64,000 nucleotides of DNA from Mobula hypostoma. Taxonomy: Eukaryota. Location of the stretch: positions 15,128,001-15,192,000 of the forward strand of contig NC_086097.1 in NCBI RefSeq assembly GCF_963921235.1. The letters run 5' to 3'. A model generated the notes under the pieces. That model had not been told where the DNA came from. It saw only the letters and a program-made list of their open reading frames with translations, and made no database searches. The translations under genes were made by a program, and so were the position numbers. Positions 1,069-62,336 of the stretch are shown one piece after another (the stretch's first letter is position 1; each line of letters begins with the position of its first letter).

Positions 1069-1104
1069 AGTCGACGTTTCGGGCCGAGACCCTTCGTCAG
1101 GACT
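1069..1104 (-). ncRNA. Minimal type I hammerhead ribozyme, intact core, in the Penelope terminal repeat
   Basis: Minus strand reads AGUC CUGACGA A GGGU CUCG GCCC GAAA CG UC GACU. This gives stem I AGUC/GACU, the conserved CUGANGA and GAAA boxes, a 4-bp stem II, a palindromic ACGU in place of stem III, and a GUC cleavage triplet. Confidence 0.85.
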
Positions 1105-1797
1105 AACTGAAGGAAGAGCTAGTAAGAGATTTGAAAGTGGGGGGGGGGAGATCCAAAATGATAGGAGAAGACAGGAGGGGGAGGGATGGAGCCAAGAGCT
1201 GGACAGGTGATTGGCAAAAGGGATATGAGAGGATCATGGGACAGGAGGCCCAGGGAGAAGGAAAAGGGGGAAGGGGGGGGAACCCAGAGGATGGGCAAGG
1301 GGTATAGTCAGAGGGACAGAGGGAGAAAAAGGAGAGTGAGAGAAAGAATGTGTGTATATAAATAAATAACGGATGGGGTACGAGGGGGAGGTGGGGCATT
1401 AGTGGACATTAGAGAAAGATGAAGCCACAATCACGTTGGAGGAACAACACCTTATATTCCGTCTGGGTAGCCTCCAACCTGATGGCATGAACATTGACTT
1501 CTCTAACTTCCGCTAATGCCCCACCTCCCCCTCGTACCCCATCTTTTATTTTTATACACACATTCTTTCTCTCACTCTCCTTTTTCTCCCTCTGTCCCTT
1601 TTTCTATACACCCTTTGCCCATCCTCTGGGTTCCCCCCCCCTTTTCCTTCTCCCTGGGCCTCCTGTCCCATGATCCTCTCATATCCCTTTTGCCAATCAC
1701 CTGTCCAGCTTTTGGCTCCATCCCTCCCCCTCCTGTCTTCTCCTATCACTTTGGATCTCCCCCTCTCCCTCCCACTTTCAAAGCTCTTCCTTCAGTT

Positions 1798-1836
1798 AGT
1801 CCCGACGAAGAAGAGTCTCGGCCCGAAACGTCGACT
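1798..1836 (+). ncRNA. Hammerhead ribozyme copy with a mutated core (probably inactive)
   Basis: agtc CCGACGA agaagagtctcggccc GAAACGTC gact: U4 is changed to C and there is an insertion before stem II. Confidence 0.7.
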
Positions 1837-2009
1837 GTACCTCTTCCTAGAGATGCTGCCTGGCCTGCTGCGTTCACCAGCAACTTTGATGTGTGTTGCT
1901 TGAATTTCCAGCATCTGCAGAATTCCTCGTGTTTACATTGTGACACTGTAATTTCCTTTGGGATCAGTAAAGTATCTATCTATCTATCTACAGCTACAAG
2001 GTGGATGTG

Positions 2010-2660
2010 AAACAGAAGAAAGACTGCTCGTGCTGGAAGTCCAGAGCAACACACAAAGTGCAGAGTAATACAACAGATCAGGTAGCGTCGGTGGAAGGAA
2101 TAGAACATTCAAGAATGTGTGGTGAGATCCTTCATCAGGACTGGAAAGAAAAAGGGGAGATTACGGGTATATAAAGGTGGGGGGAAGGGGTTGATCAAAA
2201 GCTTGCTGGTGATAGGAAGAGTTGATAGGCAAATGAGGGAGGGGGAGAGCAAGAATGATGTACAAAGCTGGTAGGTCATAGGTGGTAGGAACAAAGAGCT
2301 GAAGAAGATGGAATCTGGTAGGAGAGGACAGTTGACCATGGAATAAAGTGAGAGGTCAGGAAGGTGGAAGGTGTGTGTGGCAGGCAGATCAAGAGGATGA
2401 GGGAAGGAAAAAAACAAAGGGTTGATGGGATAGAGGAAAACCTGGGGACAGGGGTTGTTTACTGGAAGTTAAAGAAATTGGTGCTCATGCCATCTGATGA
2501 AGACTACCAAGGCAGAATATGAAGTTCTGTTTCTCTGTTCTGCATCGAGCCTCCACTTGGTCATGAACAGACATGTCAGTGTGAGAATGGGAAATGGAGT
2601 TAAAAGGACTGGCCACCAGGAGACGCTGGATGCAACGACAGATGGAAGATAGATGTGAAC
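2010..2660 (-). mobile_element. Old Penelope-like element 3' fragment
   Basis: Degenerate hammerhead box (ccttcatcaggact at about 2129-2142), purine-rich UTR and decayed GIY-YIG C-terminal sequence homologous to 1418-1516. Confidence 0.7.
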
Positions 2661-2828
2661 ATACGAGCGAATAGGATCAGGAGCTTGTGATTCTAGATGT
2701 ATCGAAATAGAATCAACCAACACCTTCAGTAGGTACTTGAAGAGGCACTTTAGGTGAATAATTTGGATGACTACAGGGAAAGAAATGGGGAATTGTAAGA
2801 TGCTATTGATCTACCAGGGGCTGATATA

Positions 2829-3019
2829 CACTCAATGGCCACTTTATTAAGTAGAGCATAGAATAGTACAGCACAGTACAGGCCCTTCCGCCCACAATGT
2901 TGTGCCGACCCTCAAACCCTGCCTCCCATATAAGCCCCCACCTTAGATTCCTCCATATACCTGTCTAGTAGTCTCTTAAACTTCACTACATGAGGTATTT
3001 AGTAAATGGCCTCTCAGTG
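2829..3019. mobile_element. Tc1/mariner-type MITE remnant containing a CR1 3' tail
   Basis: TA-cactcaatggccactttattaagta ... tatttagtaaatggcctctcagtg-TA forms imperfect TIRs with TA flanks. Confidence 0.55.
2853..2989 (-). mobile_element. Young CR1 LINE extreme 3' end
   Basis: Reverse complement is nearly identical to the 3' ends at about 18075-18212, 22310-22452 and 52550-52688. Confidence 0.9.
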
Positions 3020-3235
3020 TATTCTTCCCCTGCTGAAACACCACATTGAGAGCTCCAGATTACTATACACATTCTCACAGATTGGTGAGTACTTTGCAGA
3101 AAACATCTGTTCAATTGGCACGAGTGATCCTAAACTTCCAGTTGGCTACATCTTCAATTCTCCGTCTCACTCTCACTGTCTTTGGCCTCTTACCCTGCTA
3201 CAACAAACAACATCGTAAACTTTGGCAACCATGTA

Positions 3236-3970
3236 TCGAAGTTCCAAGTAAATTGTATTATCAGAGTACATTCGTATATGTCACCAGATACAACCCTGAG
3301 ATACATTCTCCTGCTGGCTTACTCAGCAAATCTATAGCATACTAACCGTAACAGATTCAATGAAAGATCAACCAGAAGACAAGAAACTGTGCAAATGCAA
3401 ATATAAATAAATAATAATAAATAATGAGAACATCAAATAACAAGATAAGGAGTCTTTAAAATGAGATTCTTGGTTGTGGGAACATCTCAATGGATGGGCA
3501 TGTGAGTGTAGTTACCCCCTTTTGTTCAAGAGCCTGATGGTTGAGGGGTAGTAACTGTTCCTGAACCTGGTGGTGTGAGTCCTGAGGCTCTTGTATCTTC
3601 TACCTGATGGCAGCAGCAAGTAAAGAGCATGACCTCAGTGGTGAGGTCTCTAATGATGGATGCTGCTTTCCTACAACAGCATTTCATGTAGATGTGCTCA
3701 ATGGTTAGGAGGGCTTTGCTTGTGAAGTACTGGGGCAAATCCACTACCTTTTGCAGGATTTTCCTTTCAAATGGTGCCCCACACAGACTTCCAATCTGCG
3801 CCTTGTGAGGCATGAAAATGCCCGACGCAGGCCTCTCATGGTCTGAGTCGACGTTCCCTCCCCTTCCTTTCAAAGACATTGGTGTTTCCATACCAGGCCA
3901 TGATGCAGCCAGTCGATACACTCTCCATTACACAGCTATAGAAATTTTGATGACACGCCGAATCTCTGCA
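3236..3970 (-). mobile_element. Rex/Babar-like LINE 3' fragment (GCIxAWYGN...KAASIIxD...LLPSGRRY family)
   Basis: ORFs 3836..4018 and 3526..3921 carry MESVSTGCIMAWYGNT and CCRKAASIIRD. The 3' UTR is shared with many copies in the window. Confidence 0.8.
3772..3863 (+). mobile_element. 5'-truncated tRNA-SINE copy (3' part only) with an 11-bp TSD
   Basis: TTCCTTTCAAA at 3761-3771 and 3864-3874. The insert matches the 3' end of the full SINE at 39296-39535. Confidence 0.85.
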
Positions 3971-4567
3971 GACTCCATGTATCATCTTCAAATGAGGCTT
4001 TTGGGACTCAAAATTCATTCAAAAGTTTCAGATTACCATCCTCTCCAGTTTATATCACTTCTGATGAAAGATCACACTTAATTTCAAAACGTGTAGATGA
4101 ACAATCTGCATTGTAGCTCAGTGTATGTAAATAATCTCAGGAGACACACTAGTCCTTTCACATCTTATGGGTGTGGGAAATGGGCCCAACATAAGCAAGC
4201 AGGGCTATCTCAGATAGACACCTTGGCCAACATGCACAAGTTGGGCCAAAGGGCCTGCTAGGCTGCTGTCTGTCTCGATGACTCCTCTGTTCTGAGCAAT
4301 TAGGGATCCAAACCTGAGGGGCAATGATTATTTCACTGAAATGTACTATGTTCAGCATTCACAACTGTCATGGTCCCGACAGAACAGCCACAGGCATCCA
4401 AGTTTTGGTGCTCCAACTCCCCAGAGTATGGTTAGCCACCAGTATCCGTTTAAGACTCAGACTGCCAATTATTGCCTATCATGTTACTTCATGGAAAAAA
4501 TGAATTTAAAGGCCTCATAGCTGAGCACTCTGCTCAGTGAGTTCTATTTCTGTTTGTGATTTTGCCT

Positions 4568-5330
4568 TCAGATTTCCATAAGATACAGGAGCAGAATTAA
4601 GCCATTTGGCTCCTTGAGTCCACTCTCCCATTTCATCATGAGGATCCAAATATCCTCTCCGCTCCAATCTCCTGCCTTCTCCCCATATCCCTTCGTGCCC
4701 TGACCAATCAAGAATCTATCAACCTCTGCCTTAAGTACACATAAAGACTTGGCCTCCACAGCTGTCTGTAGCAAAGAATTCCACAGATTCACCGCTCTCT
4801 GACTAAAATTCCTCCTCATCTCCATTCTAAAAGGATGCCCCTCTATTCTAAGGCTGTCCTCTGGTCTTAAGACTCTCCCATCACAGGAAACATCCTCTCC
4901 ACATCCACTCTATGAAGGCCTTTCACCATTAAATAGATTTCAATGAGGTCACCCCTTATCCTTCTGAATTCTCGTGAATACAGACCCAGGGCCATAAATG
5001 TTCTTCATATGACAAGCCATTGAATCCCAGAATCATTTTCATCAACCTCCCTTGAACCCTCTGCAGTTTCAGTACATCCTTTCTAAGATCAGGGGCCCCA
5101 AACTGCTCACAATACTCCAAGTGAGGCCTCACCAGACCCTCAACATTACATCCTTGCTTTTATATTCTAGTTCTTGAAATGAATGCTAACATCCTATTTG
5201 CCTTCCTCACCACTGTCTCAACCTGTAAATTACCCTTTAGGGAATCCTGCACAAGGACTCCTAACTCCCCTTGTGCCTCAGACTTTTGTATTTTATCTCC
5301 ATTTAGAAAATAGTCAACCCTTTCATTTCT
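4568..5330 (-). mobile_element. CR1 LINE 3' fragment
   Basis: ORF 4568..4825 EMRRNFSQRAVNLWNSL...FKAEVDRFL-like CR1 ORF2 C-terminus, with upstream decayed LVRPHLEYC. Confidence 0.85.
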
Positions 5331-9221: not shown

Positions 9222-9690
9222 AGATGGATTTTAACTCTGATTCCCATTCCTGTTCCAACGTGTCAGTCCATGGACTCCTCTTGTGCCATGATGAAGCCAC
9301 CCTCAGGGTGGAGGAGCAACACCTTATATTCTGTCTAGGCATCCTCCAACCTGATGGCATGAACATCAAATTCGCCTTCCAGTAAACAAGTTCCACTGCC
9401 TCCCTTCCTCTATTCCTCACTCTGACCTTTTACTTCTTCACACCTGCCTATTGCTTCCCCAGGGTCTCGTCCTCCTCCTTTTCCTCCTACGGTCCACTTT
9501 CCTCTCCTATTAGATTCCTTCTTCTCCAGCCCTTGACCTGTCCCACCCACCTGGCTTCACCTGTCACCTTCCAGCTAGCCTCCTTCCCCTCCCCCACCCC
9601 ACCCATCTTTTTATTCTGGCAGTTCCCCCTTCCTCCTCAGTCATGATGAAGGGTTTACTCTTTCCCATAGATGCTGCCTGACCTACTTTC
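9222..9690 (+). mobile_element. Penelope-like element 3' fragment
   Basis: Encodes DEATLRVEEQHLIFCLGILQPDGMNI, followed by a pyrimidine-rich UTR and a partial hammerhead (agtcatgatgaaggg). Confidence 0.8.
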
Positions 9691-10470: not shown

Positions 10471-10884
10471 AACTGGCACCCCAGGATAAATTTCCAAGCA
10501 GAGATTATCCAAACTATAAACAACAAACGATGTGCTGGAGGAAGTCAGTGACTTTATCAGCATCTTCATGAGTAAAGGAATCGTTGATGTTTCATGCTGA
10601 TATTTTGCAGGACTCCTGTGTCTCCATTATCCAAATTATGATTTAATCCTTGAAGCCCAAGAGTTAAGTGGTGTCGTGATTGAAGTTTTCAGTAGTATGT
10701 TAAGAGGCATTGATTGCTGAGGAGACGGTGGGTGGAGAGCATAGTATGATCATCACAGTTGGTGTTGGTAAGGGGGCTTATTATTGCCACAAGTAACAAG
10801 ATAAAATGTAAAACTTAGTTTTTCAAGCCATCCAAAATATTGAGGTAGGACAAGGGAAAAGCCATAAACAGTGCAGAAACATAA

Positions 10885-11445
10885 ACAGGAGAAATTCTTT
10901 GGATGCTGGAAATTCAGATTAACACACACAAAATACTGGAGGAACTCAGCAGATCAGGCAGCATCCATGGAACTGAATAAAAATCAACTTTTTGGACCGA
11001 GACCCTTCTTCAGGACTGGAAAGAAAGGTGGAAGACGCCAGAATAAAAAGGTGGGGGGTGGGGAAGGAGGATAGATCGGAGGTGATAGGTGAAGCCAGGT
11101 GGGTAGGAGAGATAAAAGGCTGGAGAGGAAGGAGTCTGATTGGAGAGTGGACCATAGGAGAAAGGGAAGGAGGAGGAGGACGAGGTAAGAGGCCAGAGTG
11201 GGGAATAGCAGAAGAGGGGAGGATGGAGAAAATTTTTTTTACTGGAAGGATAAATCAATATTCATACCATCAGGGTGGAGACTACCCAGGTGAAATACAA
11301 GGTGTTGCTCCTTCACCCTGAGGGTGGCCTCCTCTTGGCAAAAGAAGAGGCCAGGGACTGGCATGTCATAATGGGAATGGGAATTCAATTTAAAATGTCT
11401 GGCCACCAGAAAGTTCCTCTTTAGGCAGATGAGAGGAGGTGCAGA
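10885..11445 (-). mobile_element. Penelope-like element 3' fragment
   Basis: ORF 11239..11484 ...VARHFKLNSHSH...EEATLRVKEQHLVFHLGSLHPDGMNID, with a decayed hammerhead at 10982-11017. Confidence 0.85.
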
Positions 11446-17459: not shown

Positions 17460-18213
17460 TACAAAGTAAATGGCAGGATACTTGGTAGTACAAAGTAAAT
17501 GGCAGGATAATTGGTTGTGTGGAGGAGCAGAGGGATCTCGGGGTACATGTCCATAGATCCCTGAAAGTTGCCTCACAGGTGGATAGGGTAGTTAAGAAAG
17601 CTTATGGGGTGTTAGCTTTCATAAGTCGAGGGATAGAGTTTAAGAGTCGCAATGTAATGATGCAGCTCTATAAAACTCTGGTTAGGCCACACTTGGAGTA
17701 TTGTGTCCAGTTCTGGTCACCTCACTATAGGAAGGATGTGGAAGCATTGGAAAGGATACAGAGGAGATTTACCAGGATGCTGCCTGGTTTAGAGAGTATG
17801 CATTATGATCAGAGATTAAGGGAGCTAGGGCTTTACTCTTTGGAGAGAAGGAGGATGAGAGGAGACATGATAGAGGTGTACAAGATAATAAGAGGAATAG
17901 ATAGAGTGGATAGCCAGTGCCTCTTCCCCAGGGCACCACTGCTCAATACAAGAGGACGTGGCTTTAAGGTGAGGGGTGGGAAGTTCAAGGGGGATATTAG
18001 AGGAAGGTTTTTTACTCGGAGAGTGGTTGGTGCGTGGAATGCACTGCCTGAGTCAGTGGTGGAGGCAGATAAACTAGTGAAGTTTAAGAGACTACTAGAC
18101 AGGTATATGGAGGAATTTAAGGTGGGGGCTTATATGGGAGGCAGGGTTTGAGGGTCAGCACAACATTGTGGGCCGAAGGGCCTGTACTGTGCTGTACTGT
18201 TCTATGTTCTATG
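17460..18213 (+). mobile_element. Young 5'-truncated CR1 LINE, open ORF2 C-terminus (17519-18151)
   Basis: 210-aa uninterrupted EEQRDLGV...LVRPHLEYCVQFWSP...FFTRRVVGAWNALP, a (ttctatg)n tail, and CTATGATTTC at 17446-17455 and 18209-18218. Confidence 0.95.
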
Positions 18214-18248: not shown

Positions 18249-18362
18249 ATTTTGTGTTGGCTCTTGAAACGGCGGCGGCAGCGGTGACGAATGTGGAGAC
18301 TCGGACTTGTGCGGCGCAGGATACGCCTTACGGATGGCCTTCAGATCACTGGCACTTGACTG
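18249..18362 (-). CDS. Probable internal coding exon (114 nt, phase 0-0) of an unidentified host gene: QSSASDLKAIRKAYPAPHKSESPHSSPLPPPFQEPTQN
   Basis: Acceptor tgtgttcccctctgcag with a tttaac branch-like motif upstream, donor AAT/gtgagt. Length is a multiple of 3, only one of three frames is open, CpG is locally retained, and the sequence is not repeat-derived. Confidence 0.6.
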
Positions 18363-21893: not shown

Positions 21894-22452
21894 ATGATGC
21901 AGCTCTATAAAACTCTGGTTAAGCCACACTTGGAGTACTGTGTCCAGTTCTGGTCGCCTCACTATAGGAAGGATGTGGAAGCATTGGAAAGGGTACAGAG
22001 GAAATTTACTAGGATGCTGCCTGGTTTAGAGAGTATGCATTATGATCAGAGATTAAGGGAGCTAGGGCTTTACTCTCTGGAAAGAAGGAGGATGAGAGGA
22101 GACATAATAGAGGTATACAAGATACTAAGAGGAATAGATAGAGTGGACAGCCCGCACCTCTTCCCCAGGGCACCACTGCTCAATACAAGAGGACATGGCT
22201 TTAAGGTAAGGGGTGGGAAGTTCAAGGGGGATATTAGAGGAAGGTTTTTCACTCAAGAGAGTGGTTGGTGCGTGGAATGCACTGCCTGAGTCAGTGGTGG
22301 AGTCAGATACACTAGTGAAGTTTAAGAGACTACTGGACAGGTATATGGAGGAATTTAAGGTGGGGTGTTATATGGGAGGCAGGGTTTAAGGGTCGGCACA
22401 ACATTGTGGGCTGAAGGGCCTGTACTGTGCTGTACTATTCTATGTTCTATGC
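21894..22452 (+). mobile_element. Young 5'-truncated CR1 LINE
   Basis: Near-identical to the corresponding part of 17460-18213, with a 1-nt frameshift near 22256. Confidence 0.95.
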
Positions 22453-22634: not shown

Positions 22635-24050
22635 TTCATTGTCCTCTGACTGTACAAATAAACAATCAAACAGAACAACATTCCACTGGACCATGGGGCA
22701 GCCAGAAAACATAAATCACACACAGCACATAAACCAAAATATTACCATGAAGAGTTCATAGAATATAATTCAAAATGCATGTGAAGTCTGCAGAACAAGT
22801 AAACAGTAAACAGTACAGTAAACGATGTCTTGGTGACGAGACCTTGGAGGAGGCAGGGTATTCATCAGTCTCACAGCTTGGGGAAAGAAGCTGTGACCCA
22901 GTCTGGCAGTCCTAGTGCTGATGCTCCTGTACCTCCTTCCAGAAGGTAGAGGATCAAAGAAACAGTGTGATGGGAGGTAGGGATCCTCACAGTGCTTTGG
23001 GCCCTTCACCTGCAATGGCTCCTGGTAAAATGTTACAAATAGGAGGGATAACCCGGTCATCCTCTCAGTCTTATAACTATCCTTTGTAGGGTACTGAGGT
23101 CCAATGCCTTGCAGTTTCCAGACCACACAGTGATGCAGCCTGACAGGGCACTGTCGATGATGCTCCTGCAGAAAGTTGTTAGAATGGGGGCAGGGAGCCT
23201 TATAGGCCACACTCACAACACGCTGGAGGAACTCAGCAGGTCGGGCAGCGTCCGTGGAAACGATCAGTCAACGTTTTGGGCCGGAACCCTTTGTCAGGAC
23301 TGAAGGGGGAAGCGGCAGAGGCCCTATAAAGAAGGTAGGGGGAGGGTGGGAAGGAGAAGGCTGGTAGGTTCCAGGTGAAAAACCAGCAAGGGGAAAGATA
23401 AAGGAGTGGGGGAAGGGAGGCGGGGAGGGGATAGGCAGGAAAAGTGAAGAAGGAATAGGGGAAAGCACAATGGGTAGTAGAAGGAGGTGGAACCATGAGG
23501 GAGGTGATAGGCAGCTGGGGGAGGGGGCAGAGTGAAACTGGGATAGAGGAAGGGAGGGGGAGGGAATTATCAGAAGTTGGAGAATTCAATGTTCATACCA
23601 AGGGACTGGAGACTACCTAGACGATATATAAGGTGTTGCTCCTCCAACCTGAGTTTAGCCTCATCATGGCAGTAGAGGAGGCCATGTATGGACATATCCG
23701 AATGGGAATGGGAAGCAGAGCTGAAGTGGGTGGCAACCGGGAGATCCTGTCTGTTGTGGCGGACGGAGCAGAGGCCTCCATCTCCTCAGGAAGTGTAGGT
23801 GCTGCGGCGCCTTCTTGACTAGTGAGGAGGTGTTGTGAGCTCATCCATTATGTGCAAACCAAGGAACTCTGTGCTCTTCACTCTCTCCACATTGATGTAC
23901 AATGGAGAGTGGTCGACCTGTGCCTTCCTGAAGTCCACAATCATCTCTCATTGAGACTCAGGATGTTGTGATTGCACCACTTGACGAGCCTCTCTACCTC
24001 CTCTCTATAGGCCGACTCATTATCAGTGAGCTTGATGATGCAGTGGAAAC
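22635..24050 (-). mobile_element. Rex/Babar-like LINE fragment split by a Penelope insertion
   Basis: ORF 22770..23216 ...DPLPSGRRYRSISTRTARLGHSFFPQAVRLMN. The sequence resumes upstream at 23772-24050. Confidence 0.75.
23209..23771 (-). mobile_element. Penelope-like element 3' fragment
   Basis: GIY-YIG-like C-terminus (DEAKLRLEEQHLIYRLGSLQSLGMNIEFSNF) on the minus strand, decayed hammerhead at 23266-23301. Confidence 0.85.
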
Positions 24051-27100: not shown

Positions 27101-27769
27101 TCTATCTGTGCGATACGGTGTGGAATACTGGTAAGAAATTTGAAGATTAGTTCAAATGGTCAAATAGCAATACTATTGATGAGTGCACGGTTAATAAAAT
27201 AATAATAACAATAATAAAGAAAAGGTAAATAATTAAGTGGGGAATAATTGGGCAGTGCTTTCAGAAACAGGGAGCTCATACTCCAGATGGGGTGAATGGC
27301 CTCTCTCTATGTGGTGCGAAACTTTTGCGATACCGTACTCTGCATTCAGAGCAGCAGATATACTGGAAGTCCAATCGCAGCTCACCCCCTCACCCTTCGA
27401 TGGATAACTGGGGTTTGGTTCACTGCTCCAGCAACGTGAATGTAGAGAGCGGACGACGGGAAACCTAAAGCAACACACACAATATGCTGGAGAAACTCGG
27501 CAGGTCAGACAGCAACTATGGAAATAAACAGATAGTCGACATTTTGGGCCGAGAGTCTTCTCAGGAAACCCCTAACCTCTTGCAGACCTGTTATCTCCAG
27601 GACAGGGGCAGGGGAAAGAAAGCTCAGGGGTGGCTGAAACTGGCTAAGGCTAATATTTGTGCCTCGCTTAAAGTAAACTCAAAGTTATACCTGTATTTGC
27701 AGACTCTCGTGTCTTCCTTTGAATTAATTTACTGTTTTGAGGTTACAAAACATAACATGTACATGTTTA

Positions 27770-27961
27770 TCTGTGTGTGTGTAATGTGTTTAGCAGTCTG
27801 TGTATGTGTTTAACAATGTGTGTGTGTGTGTCTGTGTATGTTTAACAATGTGTGTGTATGTGTGTGTGTGTGTCTTTAGCAATGTGTGTGTATGTTTGAC
27901 AATGTGTGTGTATGTGTGTGTTTAGCAATGTGTGTGTGTGTCTGTGTGTTTAGCAATGTGT

Positions 27962-28000
<39 letters not shown>

Positions 28001-28332
28001 TGTGTATGTTTAGCAATGTGTGTGTGTCCGTGTGTGTTTAGCAATGTGTGTGTGTGTGTGTGTTTGAAAATGTGTGTGTATGTGTGTGTGTGTCTGTGTA
28101 TGTTTAGCAATGTGTGTGTATGTGTGTGTGTGTCCGTGTGTGTTTAGCAATGTGTGTGTGTGTGTTTGAAAATGTGTGTGTATGTGTGTGTGTGTCTGTG
28201 TATGTTTAGCAATGTGTGTGTGTGTGTATGATAATGTGTGTGTCTGTGTCTGTGTGTGTTTAGCAATGTGTGTGTGTGTATGATAATGTGTGTGTCTGTG
28301 TCTGTGTGTGTTTGACAATGTGTGTGTATGTT
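27770..28332. repeat. Compound (TG)n microsatellite punctuated by TTTAGCAATG-like motifs
   Basis: Seen directly; roughly 15-20 (TG)n tracts separated by tttagcaa/tttaacaa/tttgacaa/tttgaaaa/tatgataa. Confidence 0.95.
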
Positions 28333-28429
28333 TCTGAGATCCCGGTTCTAAATGCCATTGTTTATGGAGGAGGGGAGCAGTCCTGCAGCTTGCTAGAACC
28401 CGTGCCTGTGAATCAGACCTAAACGCAGT

Positions 28430-28713
28430 CAGCAGATCCATTACAGAGAGTGGCTGAGGAGATCAGCGGATCCATTACAGAGAGTGGCTGAGGAGATCAG
28501 CAGATCCATTACAGAGAGTGACTGAGCAGATCAGCAGATCCATTACAGAGAGTGGCTGAGGAGATCAGCAGATCCATTACAGAGAGTGGCTGAGCAGATC
28601 AGCAGATCCATTACAGAGAGTGGCTGAGGAGATCAGCAGATCCATTACAGAGAGTGGCTGAGGAGATCAGCAGATCCATTACAGAGAGTGGCTGAGGAGA
28701 TCAGCAGATCCAT
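28430..28713. repeat. 34-bp minisatellite, 8 full units plus 12 bp
   Basis: Unit CAGCAGATCCATTACAGAGAGTGGCTGAGGAGAT starting at 28430, 28464 ... 28668, 28702, with few substitutions. Confidence 0.95.
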
Positions 28714-29051
28714 GGCTGTACTACAGGGACACCAATGCTTCCATCATGATTGCACTGTGGGGATGGGAATTGAAAGAAGGAATCGGGAGCCATTCCTGAA
28801 ACCTGTGGTGATTGTCTGTTGGGTGTACCCATAACAGGAAGCATGTCCGAGAGAGAGTTTACAGTGGAAAAGCCATTGCTCTGGGGTAGTCCCACTCCAC
28901 CGACCCCAGTCCCCAGTGGTACCCTAGTAAGTTCAATCCTCAGGCCTTTCATGGAAGTTTTGTTTGCCACTGATACCCAAGATCAGATTTCACCCCATAG
29001 CACGGTTTGAGTAAATAATTCCACCAAAGATGAGAAGAAGAAAACCAGGGA

Positions 29052-32229: not shown

Positions 32230-32445
32230 TGAAAATGCAAAAGATTCTGCAGATGCTGTAAATAATGAGTAACACACACAAAATGCTGGAGGAATTCAGC
32301 AAGTTAGGCAGCATCGATGCAGCAGAATAAACAGTCGTCTTTTCTGGCTGAGACCCTTCATCAGGACTGGAGAGGAAGGGGGCTGAGACAGAATAAGATG
32401 GTGCAAGAGGGAAGGAAGTACAAAAAGGCAGGTGAAACCAGAAGA
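32230..32445 (-). mobile_element. Penelope-like terminal repeat fragment
   Basis: acacacaaaatgctggaggaattcagcaag... and a decayed hammerhead at 32333-32368. Confidence 0.75.
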
Positions 32446-39535: not shown

Positions 39536-40917
39536 CACGTTGCAAGGCTTGATCAGTAAGGCTCATGGCTGTAGACTCATTTTGGGTGACTTTGGGATAC
39601 AATTTGCATGTGTTTCTGGATTCTGGTTACTTGACTTTTTAGTAGTTTTTGAGCTGTTTGATCGGGGCAATCAGTGAAGACTGGCTCTGCGGCCTACAGT
39701 CCGCTAGCTGTATGGAGTTAAATGGAGCTGAACTAAATGTAAAACTCCTGGACTCCAGGTTTGATGTTGATATTCTATATGTTGTTTGCTTGTTTTGTGC
39801 TGTTTGTGCAATTTATTCCGTTTTTCGCACGTTGGGTGTTTGAACATGTTCCATGGTGTTTCTTTGTTTAGTGGCTACCTGCGGGGGCGGGGGGGGGGTG
39901 GTGGTTGAATCTCAGAGTTGCATTCTGTATATATACTTTGAACTTACTGAAGGGTATGGTCCTTATGCAGGCAAGTAAGCTCAGTGCAGAGGGGCAAAAG
40001 GATCAGCACAGATGTGATGGGTCAAGGGGATAGTTTCTGTGCTGTACAACTGTAATGGATTCAAACTCAAAAACGCCAATAGAGTTTGGGATGTTGTGTT
40101 CAGAGGGGGTGAGCTTCGAATTGGAGAAAGGAATGCCGAATTTGAAATGGTTGATATCTCGTCGGCAGTAAGAGATAAAGAGAACTAGATCTAACAGGGT
40201 TTCCTAGAGCAGGAAGACAGTTGAGGACGGAAGCAGGGGTAATCGGTGGGGGGCTGGGGGATCCTTGCCAAAGTATTCCATGTGTGTCTTGATGAAAGGT
40301 CTCAGTCTGAAATGTTGACTGCTTATTTCCCTCCATATATCCTGCCTGACTTGCTGAATTAATCCAGCATTTTGCATGCGTTGCTCAAGACTTCCAGTAT
40401 CTGCAGGATCTTGTGTGTTCAAAAAAAGTGAATATTCTACATGTAAAGTAATTAAGATCACTTGCAAGCTTTAACAGGAGGCTAAGCCCCACTTCCAGCT
40501 TTGTTGCTGGCTGGGGTGGGGTAATCACAGTTCTCCCGCCCCTCATTGCCCAAATTGAAGGTGTGGGAGGGCAGTGAAACTTGCCTGGCTAACTGTGGTC
40601 TTGGAAGGTGGGACCTCAGCAGGCGGTGATTTGAAGTGGGCTGTCGAGGTCCGGTGAAAATTGACCCCCTATTTCAACAACCAGACTGAAAAGTTTGAAC
40701 TCCTTGCCTTGGTTCAAACTCAAAATTTACATTGTGGTCTGCCAGGCAGAGACTGATTGAGCAGTGACTGTCTAAGTGTGTAATATGATCTAACCTCAGG
40801 GTTCATCATACACAGATCTTCACTAAAGCAACACTTTAATTGTTTCTTTCCCTGGGGCGACTCAACAACAACCACTTGTATTTACATCACACCTCTCAAG
40901 TAGTAAAATTCCCAAAT

Positions 40918-41606
40918 GGAACTCAGCAGGTCAGGCAGCATCTATGGAGAGGAATAAATAGTCAGCATTCAGGGTCGAGACACTTCGTCAGGACAGGAGA
41001 AGACGGGGGCAGAAGCCAGAAAAATGAGGTGGGTGGAGGGGAAGGAGTTCATGCTGGTAGGTGATAGGTGGAACCTGAATGAGGAATGGAAAAAGAGAGA
41101 AGTTGCGGGGTGTGGGGGTGAAGGAGAAATTACCGGAAATTAGAGAATTCATTGTTCATGCCATCAGGTTGGAGACTACCCAGACCTCTAACTTCTGACA
41201 ATTTCTCCCTATCCCCCTTCTCCCATTCCCCATCCTGGTTCCCCTGTCATCCCTTCCCTTCTTCTCACCTGCCCATCACCTCACTCCTGTGCACCCTCTC
41301 CTTCCCTTTCTCCCATCTCATCTCCTACCAGATACCTTCTTCAGCCCTTTTTGCTTCCACCCAGCTTCTCATTTCATTTCATCTCCCCTCCCCCTCACCT
41401 GGTCTCTCCTATCACCTGCTGTTTCGTACTCCTTCACCTCCCACCACCTTCTTATTCTGGCTCCTGGCCCCGCCCCCCCACCCTTTCTAGTCCTGCTGAA
41501 GAGTCCTGGTCCGAAACACCAACTGTTTATTCCTTTCCATAGATGCTACCTGACTTGCAGAGTTCCTCCGCCATTTTGTGTGCGCTGCTCTGCTGAATCT
41601 CTTGTG
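40918..41606. mobile_element. Older Penelope-like element with inverted arms
   Basis: 40918-41184 is minus-oriented (hammerhead remnant about 40960-40995, GIY-YIG end). 41185-41606 is plus-oriented (hammerhead remnant about 41489-41524). Confidence 0.75.
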
Positions 41607-41892
41607 ATTATAAGATTCCCAGGATGCTCCACAGCAGTGCTACGTTAAAAATGGGCACAAAGAGACATCAGATGACCTGAGGACTGGTGAGTGACAGCTG
41701 GCACAAAGTAGTAGGTTAAAAGGAATGGCCTAGGGAGGACTGGGAGTGAAGACACAATCCCGAAGGAGACACAACTGACGGCAGATGCTGGAATCTGGAG
41801 CAACAAATGGGAACTCAGTGGGTCGAGCAGAATCTATGCAGAGAAGGGAAGTGTCAAAGTTTTGGGCCTAAATCTTAAATCAAGGCTCACAA

Positions 41893-42234: not shown

Positions 42235-42600
42235 GCAACACATACAAAATACTGGAAGAACTCAGCAGCATCTATGGAAATGAATAAAGAGCCGATGTTT
42301 TGGGCTGAGACCCTTCATCGGGACAGGAATGGAGGGGGGAAGAAAGCAGAATAAGAAGTGGGGGAGGGGGAGGAGTATAATCTGGGAGGTGATAGGTGAA
42401 GCCTGGTGGGTGGGAGAGCGGGATGAAGTGAGAAACTGGAAGGTCATTGCTGGAGAAAAAGGAATCTGATGAGATGGCAGTGTGCTGTAGCAGAAAGGGA
42501 AGGAGGAGCGGCATTAGGGGGGAAATGATAGATAGATGAAGGGAAGAGGTAAGAAGAGGGCCAGAGTGGGGAAATTGAAGAAGAGGGAAGGAGGGATTTT
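42235..42600 (-). mobile_element. Penelope-like terminal repeat fragment
   Basis: Decayed hammerhead at about 42290-42325 and a purine-rich UTR. Confidence 0.75.
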
Positions 42601-50029: not shown

Positions 50030-50500
50030 AAAGCAACGCACACACATAAAATGCTGGAGGAGCTCAGCAGGTCAGGCAGCATCCATGGAAATTAATAAAC
50101 AGTCAACATTTCAGGCCGAGACCCTCAGTCAGGACTGGAAAGGAAGGGGGAAGACGCCAGAATACAAAATGTGGGGGAGTACAAGGAGTACAAGTTAGAA
50201 GATGATAGGTGAAGCCAGGTGAAGGGGGGGGGGCAGGTTGTTGAAGTAAGAAGCTAGGAGGTAATAGGTGGGAAAAGTAAAGGGCTGGAGAAGAAGAAAT
50301 CAGATAGAGGGAGGTGATAGGCAAGTGAGAAGAAGAGGTGGGGGGGTGGCAGAGTGAGGAATTGAAGAAGAGGGAAAAGGAAGGGGCAACAAATTACCGG
50401 AAGTTGGAGAAATCGATGTTCATGCTATCATGTTGGAGGCAACTTTGACGGAATATGAGGTATTGCTTCTCCAATCTGACAATGGCCACATTGTGGTAGG
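50030..50500 (-). mobile_element. Penelope-like element 3' fragment
   Basis: Decayed hammerhead at 50101-50136 and a GIY-YIG C-terminal remnant at about 50395-50495. Confidence 0.8.
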
Positions 50501-51547: not shown

Positions 51548-52688
51548 CTGCATTTGACAAGGCTCCACATGGTAGGCTTATTCAGAAAGTTAGAAGGCAT
51601 GGGATCCAGGGAAGTTTGGCCAGGTGGATTCAGAATTGGCTTGCCTGCAGAAGGCAGAGGGTGGTGGTGGAGGGAGTACATTCAGATTGGAGGATTGTGA
51701 CTATTGGTGTCCCACAAGGATCTGTTCTGGGACCTCTACTTTTCGTGATTTTTATTAACGACCTGGATGTGGGGGTAGAAGGGTGGGTTGGCAAGTTTGC
51801 AGACAACACAAAGGTTGGTGGTGTTGTAGATAGTGTAGAGGATTGTCAAAGATTGCAGAGAGACATTGATAGGATGCAGAACTGAGCTGAGAAGTGGCAG
51901 ATGGAGTTCAACCCGGAGAAGTGTGAGGTGGTACACTTTGGAAGGACAAACTCCAAGGCAGAGTACAAAGTAAATGGCAGGATACTTGGTAGTGTGGAGG
52001 AGCAGAGGGATCTCGGGGTACATGTCCACAGATCCCTGAAAGTTGCCTCACAGGTGGATAGGGTAGTTAAGAAAGCTTATGGGGTGTTAGCTTTCATAAG
52101 TCGAGGGATAGAATTTAAGAGTCGCAATGTAATGATGCAGCTCTATAAAACTCTGGTTAGGCCACACTTGGAGTACTGTGTCCAGTTCTGGTCACCTCAC
52201 TATAGGAAGGATGTGGAAGCATTGGAAAGGGTACAGAGGAGATTTACCAGGATGCTGCCTGGTTTAGAGAGTATGCATTATGATCAGAGATTAAGGGAGC
52301 TAGGGCTTTACTCTTTGGAGAGAAGAAGGACGAGAGGAGACATGATAGAGGTGTACAAGATAATAAGAGGAATAGATAGAGTGGATAGCCAGTGCCTCTT
52401 CCCCAGGGCACCACTGCTCAATACAAGAGGACATGGCTTTAAGGTAAGGGGTGGGAAGTTCAAGGGGGATATTAGAGGAAGGTTTTTTACTCGGAGAGTG
52501 GTTGATGCGTGGAATACACTGCCTGAGTCAGTGGTCGAGGCAAATACACTAGTGAAGTTTAAGAGACTACTAGACAGGTATATGGAGGAATTTAAGGTGG
52601 GAGCTTATATGGGAGGCAGGGTTTGAGGGGCGGCACAATATTGTGGGCCGAAGGGCCTGTACTGTGCTGTACTATTCTATGTTCTATG
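51548..52688 (+). mobile_element. Young CR1 LINE, longest copy (RT core to 3' tail), one in-frame stop at 51883-51885
   Basis: AFDKAPH...GVPQGSVLGPLLFVIFINDL...KFADNTK, followed by the 241-aa ORF 51901..52626, near-identical to 17519..18151. Confidence 0.95.
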
Positions 52689-55985: not shown

Positions 55986-57773
55986 ACATGTGGGAGAAAC
56001 CGGAATCAAGGGCTGAAATAGAGGACAGTCACTAATAAGTGCAGCAAGGAATGCGGGAGGAACTGCTGCGGTCAGTGAACAGTGTGGAATGCTCCACTGG
56101 GAGCCAAATAGCCCAGGTGCTTGTAAAGGGAAGCCAGATAACCACAAGAGGGAGGAAGGAATAGAAGGTCAAGTTGATGGGGTGAGAAGAAGGAGGGTGG
56201 GAGGAGGCCAGTATGCAGGATAAACACCAGCAGGCACCCATGATCAAATGGCCCATTTCTGTGCTGTTTGTGCTGTGTAATCAGACTGGAAACTTTCTCG
56301 TTTTTGTTTTAGGCTCCCACCCAATGCTAAAGAAAAGCCATGCTTTTTCTTTCTTGAACAATTTACCACATGGATTCGCTCATCCCCACCTACGCTGGAT
56401 CCCATTCTCCTAATCTCACCCAGAGCTCCACAGAGCTGTTTCTTCATGGAGTATTCCTGCAATATCTTCCAGAAAGACATTATCAAATCAGTTTTCCACT
56501 GCCGTCATAGCAATGGCTTCTGGATTGATAATTCTAGACAACAAAGATTTTGCTTGTTGAATATTTTTGGGTATATCTTATGGATTTTGGACTGCTGTTC
56601 GTGAAAATCGCCATGAGATTCCCTATCACACACCATTGTTTTGAAATTGCTTATATTTGTTATTTCAATTCATAATTCATGCCTCACACCCACTAATACC
56701 TTGCTGCCTTCCAAACGAGTATGCTTTCCAGGAAAGCCTTTAGGGGGCGATAAATTCAAGTCATACTTCTAGGGGTACTGAGACCATAAGACATAAGAGC
56801 AGGATTAAGCTATTCGGCCCATCACATCTGCTCTGCCATGCCATCTGGGCTGATTTATTATCCCTCTCATTCTGAGGCTGAACCCAGTTCATTTCAATCT
56901 CGAGTGAATGATCAAACTTGACCTTACTGATTTACATGGAATGAGTGGGAGCAGCAGAAAATGTTTCCTCAACATCCACCCAGATATTTCAGGGTTATAT
57001 CTGTATATCTGCAGAAGAATGAGGGGGGGATCTCATTGAAAATATTGAAAGGCTGAGATAGAGTGGATGTGGACAGGATGTTTCCCATAGTGGATGAGTG
57101 TAGGAGCAGAAGGCACAGTCTCAAAATAGAGGGATGATGAGAAATTTCTTTAGCTAGTGAGTAGTAAATCTGAGGAATTCATTTTCAGGGCATCAAAGAT
57201 TTTGGGGAGAAAGCAGAATGGGGTTGAAAGAGATAATAAATCAGCCATGATGGATTGACAGAAAACCCGATGGGACAAATAGCCTAATTCTGCTCCAATG
57301 TCTTATGGTCTTTATGGTCTTACAAAGCTCTTCACTGAGTGTTGAACAAAGAACCACGGGTTGTCTCATTTCTCCACAAACCCAGAACTTGATGGTTAAG
57401 TCCACAACCCCTTGAATTAGCATCCACTTGCTCCACAACCACTGATGCAAGTGACCCAAGTTTTTTCCTAATTCTCATGCAACACACAATGCATAAAAGA
57501 TAGCTGCGTACATTGATGGATGACCGTCGTTAAGCAGATGAAATGCCAAGCAGTCACACGCTTAATTGAATGACTTGACCCAGGCTGCATTCTGATAGTT
57601 GGGTAATTGCTTACCCTGGGAAAGAAGTAAAAAAAAACAAAACAATAGATACCAAGACTGTAGGAAGCCAGCAGATCATAGCAGTAAAAACCATAAAAGC
57701 AGTAACACTGAGCAGCAGTCTATAAACATTACCCACAGATTTACGTTAAAGAGCTAAAACAATTTCACTACGT

Positions 57774-57871
57774 GAGTCCTGACGAAGGGTCTCGGCCTGA
57801 AACGTCGACTGTACCTCTTCCTAGAGATGCTGCCTGGCCTGCTGCGTTCACCAGCAACTTTGAGGTGTGTT
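57774..57871 (+). mobile_element. 98-bp Penelope-derived mini insertion (hammerhead plus short 3' tail) with a 7-bp TSD
   Basis: ACTACGT at 57767-57773 and 57872-57878. The insert matches about 1798-1897. Confidence 0.8.
57775..57810 (+). ncRNA. Minimal type I hammerhead ribozyme, intact core
   Basis: AGUC CUGACGA A GGGU CUCG GCCU GAAA CG UC GACU; the closing pair of stem II is G-U. Confidence 0.8.
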
Positions 57872-57894
57872 ACTACGTTGACTATGCAGATTGT

Positions 57895-59508
57895 ATTATA
57901 TTGCCTGGTTGCATCACAGCCTGGTATGGAAACACTAATGCTCTTGAATGGAATATCCTACAAAAAGTAGCGGGTATGGCCCCAGTCCATCATGGGTAAA
58001 GCCCTCACCACCATTGACCACATCTACATGAAATGCCGTCGCAGGAAAGCAGCAACCATCAACAGGGACCTCCAACACCCAGGACAAGCTCTCTTCTCAC
58101 TGCTGCCATCAGGAAGAAGGTACAAGAGCCTCAGGTATCACAGTACGTGTGCTTGCAACACTGTGTGTCCGCCAGAGTGATCAGCAGCACTGGGGCTCCA
58201 CAGGGGACTGTCTTGTCTCCCTTTCTCTTCACCATTTACACCTCGGACTTCAACTACTGCACAGAGTCTTGTCATCGTCAGAAGTTTCTGATGACTCTGC
58301 CATAGTTGGATGCATCAGCAAGGGAGATGAGACTGAGTACAGGGCTACGGTAGGAAACTTTGTCACATGGTGTGAGCAGAATTATCTACAGCTTAATGTG
58401 AACAAGACTAAGGAGCTGGTGGTAGACCTGAGGAGACTAAGGTACCGGTGACCCCTGTTTCCATCCAGGGGGGTCAGTGTGGACATGGTAGAGGATTACA
58501 AATACCTGGGGATACGAATTGACAATAAACTGGACTGGTCAAAGAACACTGAGGCTGTCTACAAGAAGGGTCAGAGCCATCTCTATTTCCTGAGGAGACT
58601 GAGGTCCTTTAACATCTGCTGGACGATGCTGAGGATGTTCTACGAGTCGGTGGTGGCCAGTGCTATCATGTTTGCTGTTGTGTGCTCGGGCAGCAGGCTG
58701 AGGGTAGCAGACACCAACAGAATGAACAAACTCATTCGTAAGGCCAGAGATGTTGTGGGGATGGAACTGGACTCGCTGACGGTGGTGTCTGAAAAGAGGA
58801 TGCTGTCCAAGTTGCATGCCATCTTGGATGATGTTTCCCATCCACTACATAATGTTCTGGTTGGGCACAGGAGTACATTCAGCCAGAGACTCATTCCACT
58901 GAGATGCAACACAGAGCGTCATAGGAAGTCATTCCTGCCTGTGGCCATCAAACTTTACAACTCCTCCCTTGGAGGGTCAGACACCCTGAGCCAATAGGCT
59001 GGTTCTGGACTTATTTCCTGGCATAATTCACATATTATTGTTTAACTATTTATGGTTTTATTACTATTTATTGTTTATGGTGCAACTGTAATGAAAACCA
59101 ATTTCCCCCGGGATCAATGAAGTATGACTATGACTATGAAGATTCACACCACCAGGTTCAGGAACAGTTATTACCCCCGAGCCATCAGGTTCTTGAACCA
59201 ACGGGGATAACTTCACTCAACTTCTCCTGCCCCATCACTGAAATGATTTGACAACCAATGGACTCACTTTCGAGGACTCCTCATCTCATGTTCTCAATAC
59301 TTATTGTTTATTTATTTATTATTATTATTTCTTCTTTTTGTATTTGCACAGTTTGTTGTCTTCTACCCTCTGGTTGACTGCCCCAGTCTTTCACTGATTC
59401 TGTTATGGTTATTATTCTATAGGTTTATTGAGTATGCCCCCAAGGAAAATGAATTTCAGGGTTGTTTATGGTGACATATATGTACTTTGATAATAAAATT
59501 TACTTTGG
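57895..59508 (+). mobile_element. Rex/Babar-like LINE 3' fragment split by a Rex1 insertion
   Basis: ILPGCITAWYGNT...LLPSGRRYKSLR up to about 58135, resuming at about 59141 with ttcacaccaccaggttcaggaacag. Confidence 0.8.
58165..59140 (+). mobile_element. 5'-truncated Rex1-type LINE
   Basis: SSTGAPQGTVLSPFLFTIYTSDF, SDDSAIVGCI, YKYLGIRIDNKLDW...SFLPVAIKLYNSS; two frameshifts and a (tatgac)n tail. Confidence 0.92.
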
Positions 59509-59569
59509 ATTGAGAAGCACAGAATAAGAAGAAGTTGGTAAAGCCACATATGGAGATTGCATGCAGTTC

Positions 59570-60090
59570 TGGCCAGTCTGTTTTTGGAAACTAAACTGCA
59601 GAAGAGTGCAAAAAGATTTAAGAAGATCTTACAGGACTGGAGGGTTTGAGTCATAAGGAAAGGCTGGATAGGTTTGGGTTTTTCTCCCTGGATCACAGGA
59701 GGCTGAGGAGTGACTTAAGAGTTTTATACAATCTCAAGGGCATGGATAAAGTGAATAGTCATGGTCTTTCCCCCTGGGTATGGGAGTCCAGAGCTAATGA
59801 GTGCATAGGTTTAAGGTGAGAGGGGAAAGATTTAAAGGGGACCTGAAGGGCAACTTAGGTGGCCCATACATGGAATAAGCTGCCAGAGGAAGTTCAAGAG
59901 GCACTTTTACATGTAAAAAGATATTTGGACAGGTACGTGAATATAGAGCAGAGGTTTCCAGCCTTTTTTAAGCCTTGTACTCCTACCATTAACTAAGGAG
60001 TTTGTGGACCCCAGGTTGAGAACCCCTGGTTTAGAGGGATATGGGCCAAAAGCAGGCAAATGGGACAATGGCTACTTGGTTGGCATGGTC
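59570..60090 (+). mobile_element. Decayed CR1 fragment hosting a hAT MITE
   Basis: RVQKRF...GLEGLSHKERLDRFG.FSL remnant. Confidence 0.7.
59949..60028. mobile_element. 80-bp hAT-type MITE
   Basis: TIRs cagaggtttcca / tgagaacccctg with 8-bp flanks ATATAGAG / GTTTAGAG. Confidence 0.7.
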
Positions 60091-60094
60091 AAAG

Positions 60095-60280
60095 TAATAC
60101 ACACAAAATGCTGGAAGAACTGAGCAGATCAGGCAGCATTTATAGAACTGAGTAAACTGCTGATGTTTCAGGCTGAGACCCTTCTTCAGGACTGAGAAGG
60201 AAGGGGGGAAATGCCAGAATGAAAAGACGGGTGTAGGGGGAAAGAGGCTAGCTGGAAGGTGGTAGATGAAGCCAGGTGGT
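60095..60280 (-). mobile_element. Penelope-like terminal repeat fragment
   Basis: The hammerhead at 60158-60193 keeps CUGAAGA, GAAA and AUC but has lost stem I pairing. Confidence 0.75.
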
Positions 60281-62336
60281 TGTTGGACCAGAGGGCCTGC
60301 TGTCATGCTGTATGATTCTATGACATATGACTTCAATACCAAAAAAATTAATATTTTTGAGACATGATTCCCTGAGCCATGTTTTTATGCTGTAGTCATG
60401 CTACACTAGATCACGTAGCAAAAATGCTGAGGAAAAGCTAAATGCTGACTCCTAAAGAAGGGTCTCAGCACAAAACGTCCTCTACTTATTCATCTCCATA
60501 GATGCTGCCTGACCTGCTGGGATCCTCCAGCATTTTGTGGGTGCTGCTTTGTGGAAAAACTGAGTTGCATCTGACTCAACAGATGTTTTATAACTGTTCA
60601 GTGATTCTTGATTCTTTTGTTTTTTTAAATTTTGTATTCCCAGCAGCCACAGCATTTCAGTTCTGGAATTTTCCTTTGGGGCTGGACATCCTTATCCAAA
60701 ACAACGTGTAAAAATTGAAAATAACAAAAGCATAGAATTCCACCGCAGCAAGTGCCAGTCCACACAGCAAACAGCAATACCAACTTGTCAGGCCCATGCA
60801 TAAACTGCTCTATGGTTTGGAAGTACCAGCGTGCAATTCCTTGATGAATTACATTGCTTTGCAAGCTAAGGAGGGAGAAGAGAAGGCAAATTATTTAATC
60901 GCCATCAGGGAATCTGTCACCTTTACCTTCAAGTTTGAGACTCTGGCCCCCAAAACCGTGCCGCCCTATGCTATGGAGGAATCTTTACTGATGTATATGC
61001 AGAAAATGTTTCCTCTGTGAAGGACCATTTTTTAAAAATTAGTGGTGGCCCATTTAACACAGACTTTTTTGCTTGGAGGTTAATTCCATTTTCTGTACAT
61101 TCATGTGCCCATCCAAGACCCTCTTGAATGCTCCTATAATATCTGCCTCTACCAGCACCCCCAGCAGTGCATTCTCGGCACCCACCACCCTCAGTATAAA
61201 AAAACTTGCTCTGCACATCTTCCCCTGAACATACCCCTTCTCACTTCAAGTGCACGTCCTCTGGTATTCGGCATTTCAGTCCAAGATTGAAAAACAGATT
61301 GTTGATAGGCCAAGAAGCGAAAGGTTACGGGGGTAGGTGGGAATGCAGAGATGTGGTTACAATTGGGTCAACTGTGATGGCATTGAATGGTAGAACAAGC
61401 CTGAGGGGCCAAATGGCCTGGTCCTGTTGCCAATTTTTACATTTCCATGTTTCTGTTGAGAGAATTGTGTTCAGCATCATTGCTGTGAGGCCATTCTCGT
61501 CTTCCAGCCCAAGCCTCCTTATTAACATAAGGGAAAGGTTGGAGACGGAGACTAAAAGTGCTCGGCTTTAAAAGTAACTTTTACCTTAAGAACTGTATCC
61601 TATCACAGATATTCCCTCTGTTCTCTTGACTCTGCCTTTCTCTTCAACACAGAATGCAGCGTCTACAGTTTTTTTTGCATCAGGAGGAACAACTGCTCCC
61701 ATGACAAAATTGTCAGCTGCTAAAGTTGCTTTCTTTGGCTTGGATGGGGAACACCCAATTAGCCTACCAAGGCTGTATGAGAATCTAAGAGCAACACTCA
61801 CCCTCTCTGCTCTCTGAGCATATAAGAAAATAAGGAGCAGAACCAGGAGAAGGCCATTCAGCCCCTTGTACTGTTCCATCATTCAATATGGTGGCTGATC
61901 TCTTGCTACAGAACCACCTCCAAGCACTAACCTTAATATCATGCAATCAAATCATAACTGTCTTGAAAGTACTTGGTGACTGAGCATCTACAGAGTAAAG
62001 AATTCCAAAGACCCCCCCCCCCCCTGGGAAGAGATCTTCGGTCATCCCAGTCCTGAATTCCTGACCCCTTCATTTGTGACCATTACTCCTGCTTCCGGGC
62101 ACCCCAGGGAAAACAACACCCCTACATCTACCATCTCCATTACTCCCCTTAATAATTACACACAAGCTCATAAACACACACTCACTACACACACACACAC
62201 ACACAAAACACATGACTATGCACAATTAGATACAAACACACAAAACTACGCACATCATTAAGAATATGCAAAACCATAAACAGGTAGAAGTAGACACACA
62301 GATCACGTTACATACACACAGATCACATGCATATAC

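Follow-up and report, generated by a model that had tools for sequence, protein, structure and literature searches.

Minimal hammerhead motifs in the 3′ ends of an abundant Penelope-like element in the genome of Mobula hypostoma

The closest described relatives of the sequences reported here are the minimal hammerhead ribozymes (min-HHRs) of metazoan Penelope-like elements (PLEs). Dispersed copies of such a motif occur in a stretch of 64,000 nucleotides from Mobula hypostoma (contig NC_086097.1, positions 15,128,001 to 15,192,000), which is referred to below as the window. According to the portion of Cervera and De la Pena (2014, PMC4209133) drawn on here, the published motifs share with the present one the CUGANGA box with one extra nucleotide, a stem II that starts with G, the GAAA box, the lack of a real helix III, a palindrome at positions 15.2-16.2 and the NUH triplet. 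They likewise occur in both pseudo-long terminal repeats (pseudo-LTRs) of the element, mostly as dispersed single copies, and in opposite-strand pairs 100-700 bp apart. Both ACGU and the extra A appear in many rows of the part of the published alignment that was compared, and that part includes no cartilaginous fish (PMC4209133). The present motif differs from the typical min-HHR in its short stem II (4 bp), which is closed by a G-U pair in the dominant form; G-U closures of stem II also appear in the published alignment. The extra nucleotide, the palindrome, the dispersed single copies, the opposite-strand pairs and the weak activity limited to dimers were already published in 2014, as the consulted portion of PMC4209133 documents. 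The copy number of 65,699 obtained here compares with approximately 4,000 in coelacanth and 9,000 in Xenopus in that portion of the paper, and the descriptors behind these counts differ.

The carrier of the motif resembles the endonuclease-bearing (EN+) Neptune and Nematis PLEs as they are described in the sections of Craig et al. (2021, PMC8557442) used for comparison. The shared characters are one open reading frame (ORF) in which the reverse transcriptase (RT) precedes a C-terminal GIY-YIG endonuclease, the DKG motif, a CX2-5CxxC linker, CCHH-type residues, direct pseudo-LTRs, inverted 5′-truncated partners and 3′ ends that differ by ~30 nt; by these motifs the carrier fits Neptune or Nematis jointly. 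Non-LTR retrozymes, in the accessible part of Li, Clavereau and Pollet (2026, bioRxiv 10.64898/2026.07.22.740005), also have type-I hammerheads from PLE pseudo-LTRs and many solitary copies, but they are tandem arrays of short non-coding units, whereas the element studied here has coding capacity and its truncated ends are dispersed. Identity with a non-LTR retrozyme was rejected on account of this dispersal and of the PLE coding sequence to which the copies are joined. The domesticated intronic hammerheads of amniotes (RECK and others), as presented in the passages of PMC6155905 that were used, are type-I motifs inside introns as well. They are single conserved loci, whereas the present copies belong to inserted repeats, and their catalytic bases are lost at the rate of CpG decay. 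Literature searches retrieved no paper on this PLE family in cartilaginous fish, with most subscription papers, Repbase, Dfam and some supplements outside their scope. Dimer cleavage of PLE hammerheads was reportedly described by Lunse, Weinberg and Breaker in 2016/2017. What is useful here is the scale, namely young, near-identical full-length elements together with tens of thousands of intact motifs, and the genome is well suited to asking if minimal hammerheads of PLEs are active in vivo and how they contribute to retrotransposition.

The motifs in the window are very probably minimal hammerhead sequences in the 3′ pseudo-LTR of 5′-truncated copies of an abundant PLE, likely active only in the RNA of the element, with the intronic copies as decaying by-products. 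A profile was built from 8 of the 16 copies listed in the initial annotation and was searched against the window. Each of the 16 listed sites was matched (E 1e-7 to 1e-38), and two further matches appeared at 41810-41887(-) and, weakly, at 10519-10614(-) (E 0.01). A shared tail follows every match for 60-130 nt downstream, and the motif is therefore part of a longer repeat. The search with a strict minimal type-I descriptor that had been proposed as a check gave 2 matches in the window, whereas 100 dinucleotide shuffles averaged 0.01 matches and never exceeded 1. A general hammerhead descriptor applied to 464 kb around the window returned 13 matches, all from the same PLE family, and no unrelated sequence family. 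No hammerhead family is present among the 9 matches at E<=1 in an Rfam scan of the window, so the grounds for the hammerhead assignment are its core sequence, its fold and the PLE consensus in the literature. The spacing of approximately one copy per 4 kb given initially is correct. The predominance of the minus strand holds as a count (10 minus and 6 plus among the listed copies), but it is not significant (binomial p 0.45; p 0.33 for 11 and 6 with the extra copy) and was attributed to chance. The MIR408 and MIR2118 matches of the Rfam scan at 1357-1557 were rejected, as they are under the gathering score and arise from inverted PLE arms.

Many copies run upstream of the motif into coding sequence. 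A search with a 159-aa piece of the RT gave 67,921 first-look candidates, and open frames of up to 1,054 aa were found among the 150 that were scored. Six loci with long frames were fetched. In three of these (L051-L053), a 1043-aa frame is enclosed by direct pseudo-LTRs, 451-1,189 nt long, that share an identical motif; L054 and L056 have inverted arrangements and L055 has the 3′ motif only. The two motifs of L051 flank the ORF and stand 3,514 nt apart. The 1043-aa stop-to-stop frame contains an RT followed by a C-terminal GIY-YIG domain, and the DKG and YIDD motifs are present. The RVT_1 and GIY-YIG Pfam matches in this frame score below the curated cut-offs but appear in the expected order, and the CX2-5CxxC linker between RT and endonuclease lies at residues 910-918 of the L051 frame. 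Pfam searches with short PLE fragments gave no significant match, and a PDB sequence search with the full ORF gave one chance match only. By the domain and motif definitions in the consulted sections of PMC8557442, the carrier is classified as an endonuclease-bearing PLE of the Neptune/Nematis type. The initial annotation had named the PLE hammerhead type correctly; the carrier retroelement in the window and the partner motif in the second pseudo-LTR had not been named. Contigs from four of 24 sequencing runs cover 30 of 30 bins of a full-length element and are uninformative on ends, strand and level. An older subfamily copy with ~70% identity to the young element (L056:243-1764) adjoins two long-frame copies in inverted arrangement.

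Pseudo-LTRs (direct or inverted), 5′ truncation and target-site duplications are all present in the family. The breakpoints of 43 intact copies from L001-L030 and the 464-kb region were mapped onto the full-length element, a sample that is conditioned on the whole motif. The 5′ ends are spread from -4 to 1,364 nt upstream, which includes the GIY-YIG and RT coding sequence, and the 3′ ends lie near +100 and +132, a difference of ~30 nt. The 5′ end falls within 10 nt of the 5′ edge of the motif in 13 of the 43 copies and in the next 90 nt in 9. An adjoining inverted piece spans the whole motif in 9/43. The copies at 1069 and 1798 in the window are the two arms of a single inverted insertion at 1007-1938.

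The abundance of the motif was determined in the 3.48-Gb genome. A 28-nt core pattern with C at 11.1 has 9,516 exact matches and the same pattern with U at 11.1 has 46,653; the reversed control gave 0 for each. A looser descriptor, in which the core, both stems and the palindrome are still required, has 65,699 matches, or one per 53 kb. The suggestion that the genome holds a very large number of these motifs is borne out by these counts. In the 464-kb region, 107 whole-motif copies were retained among 154 tail matches and the 47 partial matches were dropped; extrapolation gives ~0.8 million copies genome-wide if the local density is typical. The dominant form, which is also that of the fetched full-length copies, has G10.1-U11.1 instead of the usual G-C. 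Some of the surplus of U11.1 may have arisen from the C form through CpG decay. The U11.1 form could alternatively adopt an A-U register, and the predicted fold retains G-U. The extra nucleotide between A9 and 10.1 is A in 101 of the 106 copies with a base there, and the description of a minimal PLE-type hammerhead with this extra A and ACGU agrees with the published PLE consensus. A subfamily with a U-A pair in stem II (ACCC) was rejected as a young family, as its 295 exact copies are ~3% of the GCCC count.

Conservation in the source elements was assessed by clustering the 107 copies on tail sequence alone. The clusters comprise 16 young copies (4% from the column majority), 73 older copies (15%) and 18 diffuse copies (33%). 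The young and older majorities differ in 2 of 36 motif columns, compared with 20 of 58 in the tail and 20 of 25 upstream (Fisher p 2.5e-6). The two differing motif columns are N7 and C11.1/U11.1, and the pair is kept at the latter. The near-identity of the motif between subfamilies indicates that the source elements retained it. Once inserted, the motif decays neutrally, and the catalytic CpG sites mutate as often as the loop CpG sites. Genome-wide, 2,442 copies have the inactivating change G12>A, compared with 2,153 for the harmless loop G>A; in the 464 kb, changes appear at G12 in 44/107, at G16.2 in 44/107 and at the loop G in 39/106 copies. G12 is the proposed general base of the hammerhead, according to the part of PMC6155905 consulted.

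The window lies in a gene of the CCDC85 family that spans ~290 kb. A CCDC85 Pfam match (309.7 bits) is located on the minus strand at G000:C1:15393548-15394108. The paralogue is presumably CCDC85C. Short probes placed further candidate exons, bounded by AG and GT, near window +87 kb, at 18249-18362 and in the vicinity of -15.8, -19.7 and -22.1 kb. The -15.8 kb exon (L065:4178-4281) is covered without differences by contigs of three of four sequencing runs, presumed to be RNA, and on either side these contigs continue into different sequence, as expected of a spliced exon. The whole window therefore appears to be intronic in this minus-strand gene, except for the exon at 18249-18362, and minus-strand copies of the motif are accordingly sense. 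The acceptor of that exon has two AG sites 3 nt apart.

The state of the window copies was established by scoring 17 of them column by column against the intact copy 1069-1104(-); 10519-10614(-) was left unscored, and the column scores for the 2110 and 9639 copies are forced alignments. The core bases, both stems and the palindrome are all kept in two copies, 1069-1104(-) and 57775-57810(+), and the remaining 15 have core, palindrome or stem changes or are truncated. The figure of about 15 hammerheads given at the outset is thus right for the presence of the motif, which is real at 16/16 sites, and overstates its state, with just 2/17 complete. The palindromic ACGU attributed to the copies is present in the intact ones and is retained by only 5 of the 17. 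A GIY-YIG C-terminal remnant lies immediately upstream on the same strand for 7/17 copies. The features are as follows.

1007..1938, no strand assigned: one PLE insertion composed of two inverted 5′-truncated 3′ ends, with a 10-bp target-site duplication at 997-1006/1939-1948
1069..1104, minus strand: intact minimal hammerhead motif of the young subfamily with G10.1-C11.1, in sense orientation to the host gene; forms the left arm of the inverted PLE insertion
1415..1513, plus strand: PLE GIY-YIG endonuclease, C-terminal 33 codons, 91% identity to the full-length ORF
1798..1836, plus strand: broken motif, with U4>C and 3 nt inserted; forms the right arm of the inverted insertion
2107..2142, minus strand: half motif, 5′ half only, truncated once the 5′ side of stem II is complete; upstream GIY-YIG remnant at 2655-2497(-)
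9639..9674, plus strand: internally deleted motif without GAAA or cleavage site; GIY-YIG remnant at 9230-9376(+)
10519..10614, minus strand: very decayed tail copy, additional to the listed sites, profile match with E 0.01
10982..11017, minus strand: broken motif, G12>A and C15.2>A; GIY-YIG remnant at 11421-11248(-)
18249..18362, minus strand: likely exon 3 of the CCDC85-family host gene, 38 codons, AG/GT ends; intron 3 to the left and intron 2 to the right
23266..23301, minus strand: broken motif, G8>A and G12>A; GIY-YIG remnant at 23773-23576(-)
27533..27568, minus strand: broken motif, G12>A, C15.2>U and damaged stems
32333..32368, minus strand: broken motif, C15.2>A and U16.1>A
40285..40320, plus strand: broken motif, C3>U and C15.2>U
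40960..40995, minus strand: broken motif, with damage to GAAA and to the cleavage site; GIY-YIG remnant at 41183-41133(-)
41489..41524, plus strand: broken motif, A6>C, G16.2>A and U16.1>C
41852..41887, minus strand: heavily decayed copy, additional to the listed sites, profile match
42290..42325, minus strand: broken motif, U4>C, G12>A and G16.2>A
50101..50136, minus strand: broken motif, G8>U, A9>G and C15.2>U; GIY-YIG remnant at 50486-50397(-)
57767-57773 and 57872-57878: 7-bp duplication of the mini-insertion of the 57775 copy
57775..57810, plus strand: intact motif with a G10.1-U11.1 wobble, antisense to the host gene; starts a mini-insertion of ~100 nt
60158..60193, minus strand: core intact, palindrome lost (G16.2>A), stem I broken
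60448..60483, plus strand: broken motif, G5>A and G12>A, stem I lost

Self-cleavage of this motif is putative, by analogy with the published hammerheads. In a transcript that spans both pseudo-LTRs, the two motifs would pair via ACGU and form helix III as a double hammerhead, as the available parts of PMC4209133 and PMC6765202 suggest. The published work further suggests that such a double hammerhead would cut slowly after GUC, perhaps with the help of a protein. The cut would release a unit-length RNA with the whole ORF, and this RNA may circularise and serve as a template. A lone motif is predicted to form an inactive rod (-12.9 kcal/mol) in which G5-G8 are paired with C15.2-C17. In insertions that are inverted pairs, the motif would be masked in read-through RNA by its own antisense arm, as judged from the predicted folds.

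Several observations weigh against this overall explanation. The modelled active dimer (-16.7 kcal/mol) falls short of the combined stability of two misfolded monomers (2 x -12.9), these being nearest-neighbour values with the tertiary energy of the core outside the model; even a cut at the level of the element would then need help beyond nearest-neighbour energies. All 43 mapped copies extend 47-137 nt beyond the start of the 36-nt motif and so reach past the cut site, which means that the template was uncut there or re-ligated. Naiad PLEs amplify without canonical hammerheads, according to the sections of PMC8557442 consulted. Against purely neutral decay after insertion, non-CpG core positions in the 464 kb are slightly less changed than other positions (97/961 vs 227/1807, p 0.055). 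Compensatory double changes in the stems are rare, with 0 to 5 per pair among ~105 copies, and the fold consequently rests on conservation and the known consensus. Of the conservation or covariation asked for in stems I and II, conservation between the subfamilies is seen, with only one-sided pair-keeping changes, and compensatory covariation is almost absent.

The motif might instead be kept in the PLE for a non-catalytic role, as a stop structure for reverse transcription or template switching or as a protein-binding or promoter element, and never have been an efficient cutter. The start of 13/43 copies within 10 nt of the motif 5′ edge, compared with 9/43 in the next 90 nt, would fit such a role, but the sample behind this comparison was selected for the whole motif. 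The predicted stability of the inactive monomer rod and the dominance in the young form of G-U rather than G-C at 10.1-11.1 (46,653 vs 9,516) point in the same direction, and the original paper, in the portion consulted (PMC4209133), leaves functions besides self-cleavage open. The positions that are conserved are, however, exactly the catalytic ones, with the subfamily differences confined to N7 and a pair-preserving change. Plant, fungal and protist PLEs have canonical or monomer-stable hammerheads at the same place, and one fungal example was shown to cut (PMC4209133, same portion). A non-catalytic role in place of efficient cutting is considered unlikely. The copies could also constitute a separate non-autonomous family, a retrozyme or short interspersed element (SINE), amplified from its own short RNA rather than left as truncated PLE ends. 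Very short copies that begin at the motif are numerous, and non-LTR retrozymes have been reported as PLE derivatives, also in one chondrichthyan, in the accessible part of bioRxiv 10.64898/2026.07.22.740005. The spread of the 5′ ends from -4 to 1,364 nt upstream, the GIY-YIG and RT coding sequence, the inverted partners and the target-site duplications speak against this origin, and the repeat listing of the window shows motif-bearing units nowhere in tandem, the arrangement by which retrozymes are defined in the cited part of that preprint. This origin is regarded as highly improbable.

Intact intronic copies could, finally, pair in cis or in trans within host pre-mRNA and cut it, so that host RNA processing is shaped by the load of the element. 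Given at least 65,000 intact motifs (65,699 by the descriptor, one per 53 kb), long pre-mRNAs would often contain two or more sense copies, and conserved intronic hammerheads are known in amniote genes (PMC6155905, in the passages used). The best case for the cis dimers proposed in the initial annotation is a pair of intact sense copies in intron 3, where 1069(-) is accompanied by a second copy at G000:C1:15123690-15123725(-), 5.4 kb away and to the left of the window. That copy (L066:5690-5725(-)) is a mini-insertion made of an inverted tail piece and the intact motif, with a 13-bp duplication, and it is sense and unmasked. The two intact copies singled out initially, 1069(-) and 57775(+), differ in both strand and intron; 57775(+) has the antisense orientation relative to the gene, so the two could not pair in one pre-mRNA and no single pre-mRNA has both in sense. 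The predicted fold of 980-1960, from a partition function with rescaling, is one long hairpin with 428 pairs. In this fold, 36/36 bases of the 1069 motif would pair, at a mean pairing probability of 1.0, with antisense sequence from the 1798 arm, which precedes the 1069 motif in the minus-strand transcript.

Across the ~290-kb host gene, 41 sense and 36 antisense copies were counted (p 0.65), which gives no depletion of sense copies in a comparison that covers a single gene and has low power. Intact copies number 4 sense and 7 antisense, or 5 and 7 when a copy dropped by the filter is included. The neutral decay of the core (G12>A in 2,442 copies, loop G>A in 2,153) also argues against host cutting, and the published min-HHRs gave no monomer cleavage and weak dimer cleavage in the part of PMC4209133 consulted. 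With 15/17 window copies broken, 1069(-) predicted to be masked and sense copies not depleted, the proposal of cis dimers that cut host pre-mRNA is unsupported. Pairing of intact intronic copies that shapes host RNA processing is very unlikely, and host pre-mRNA cutting as such is possible but unsupported, with little probability given to it. It is similarly doubtful that some pairs of sense motifs would cut nascent host RNA while the inverted PLE architecture acts as a built-in antisense silencer and the load is tolerated; were this true, in vivo activity of PLE hammerheads would be directly testable by RNA-end sequencing. The idea that the motif load of the present genome is larger than the published counts compared was weighed jointly with host cutting, and the combination has a low probability. 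For the host gene in the window, the evidence points to the motifs as passenger sequence.

Other repeats and frames were observed nearby. Exon-like frames resembling, we presume, cyclin K are found on the plus strand ~48-83 kb to the left of the window (L058-L062), and a Pfam search with one of these candidate frames gave no match. Fragments of a long interspersed nuclear element (LINE)-type element are present at 1-900 and 58452-58997, the latter of which matches Pfam ALKBH8_N, and the inverted PLE insertion appears to be placed in the 3′ end of the fragment at 1-900. Young 3′ fragments of another LINE, which we take to be CR1-like, are located at 17487-18213, 21894-22451 and 51886-52688; they are 94-99% alike and have no Pfam match. 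A dinucleotide-rich tandem array, the right part of which has a 34-bp period, extends over 27763-28770.

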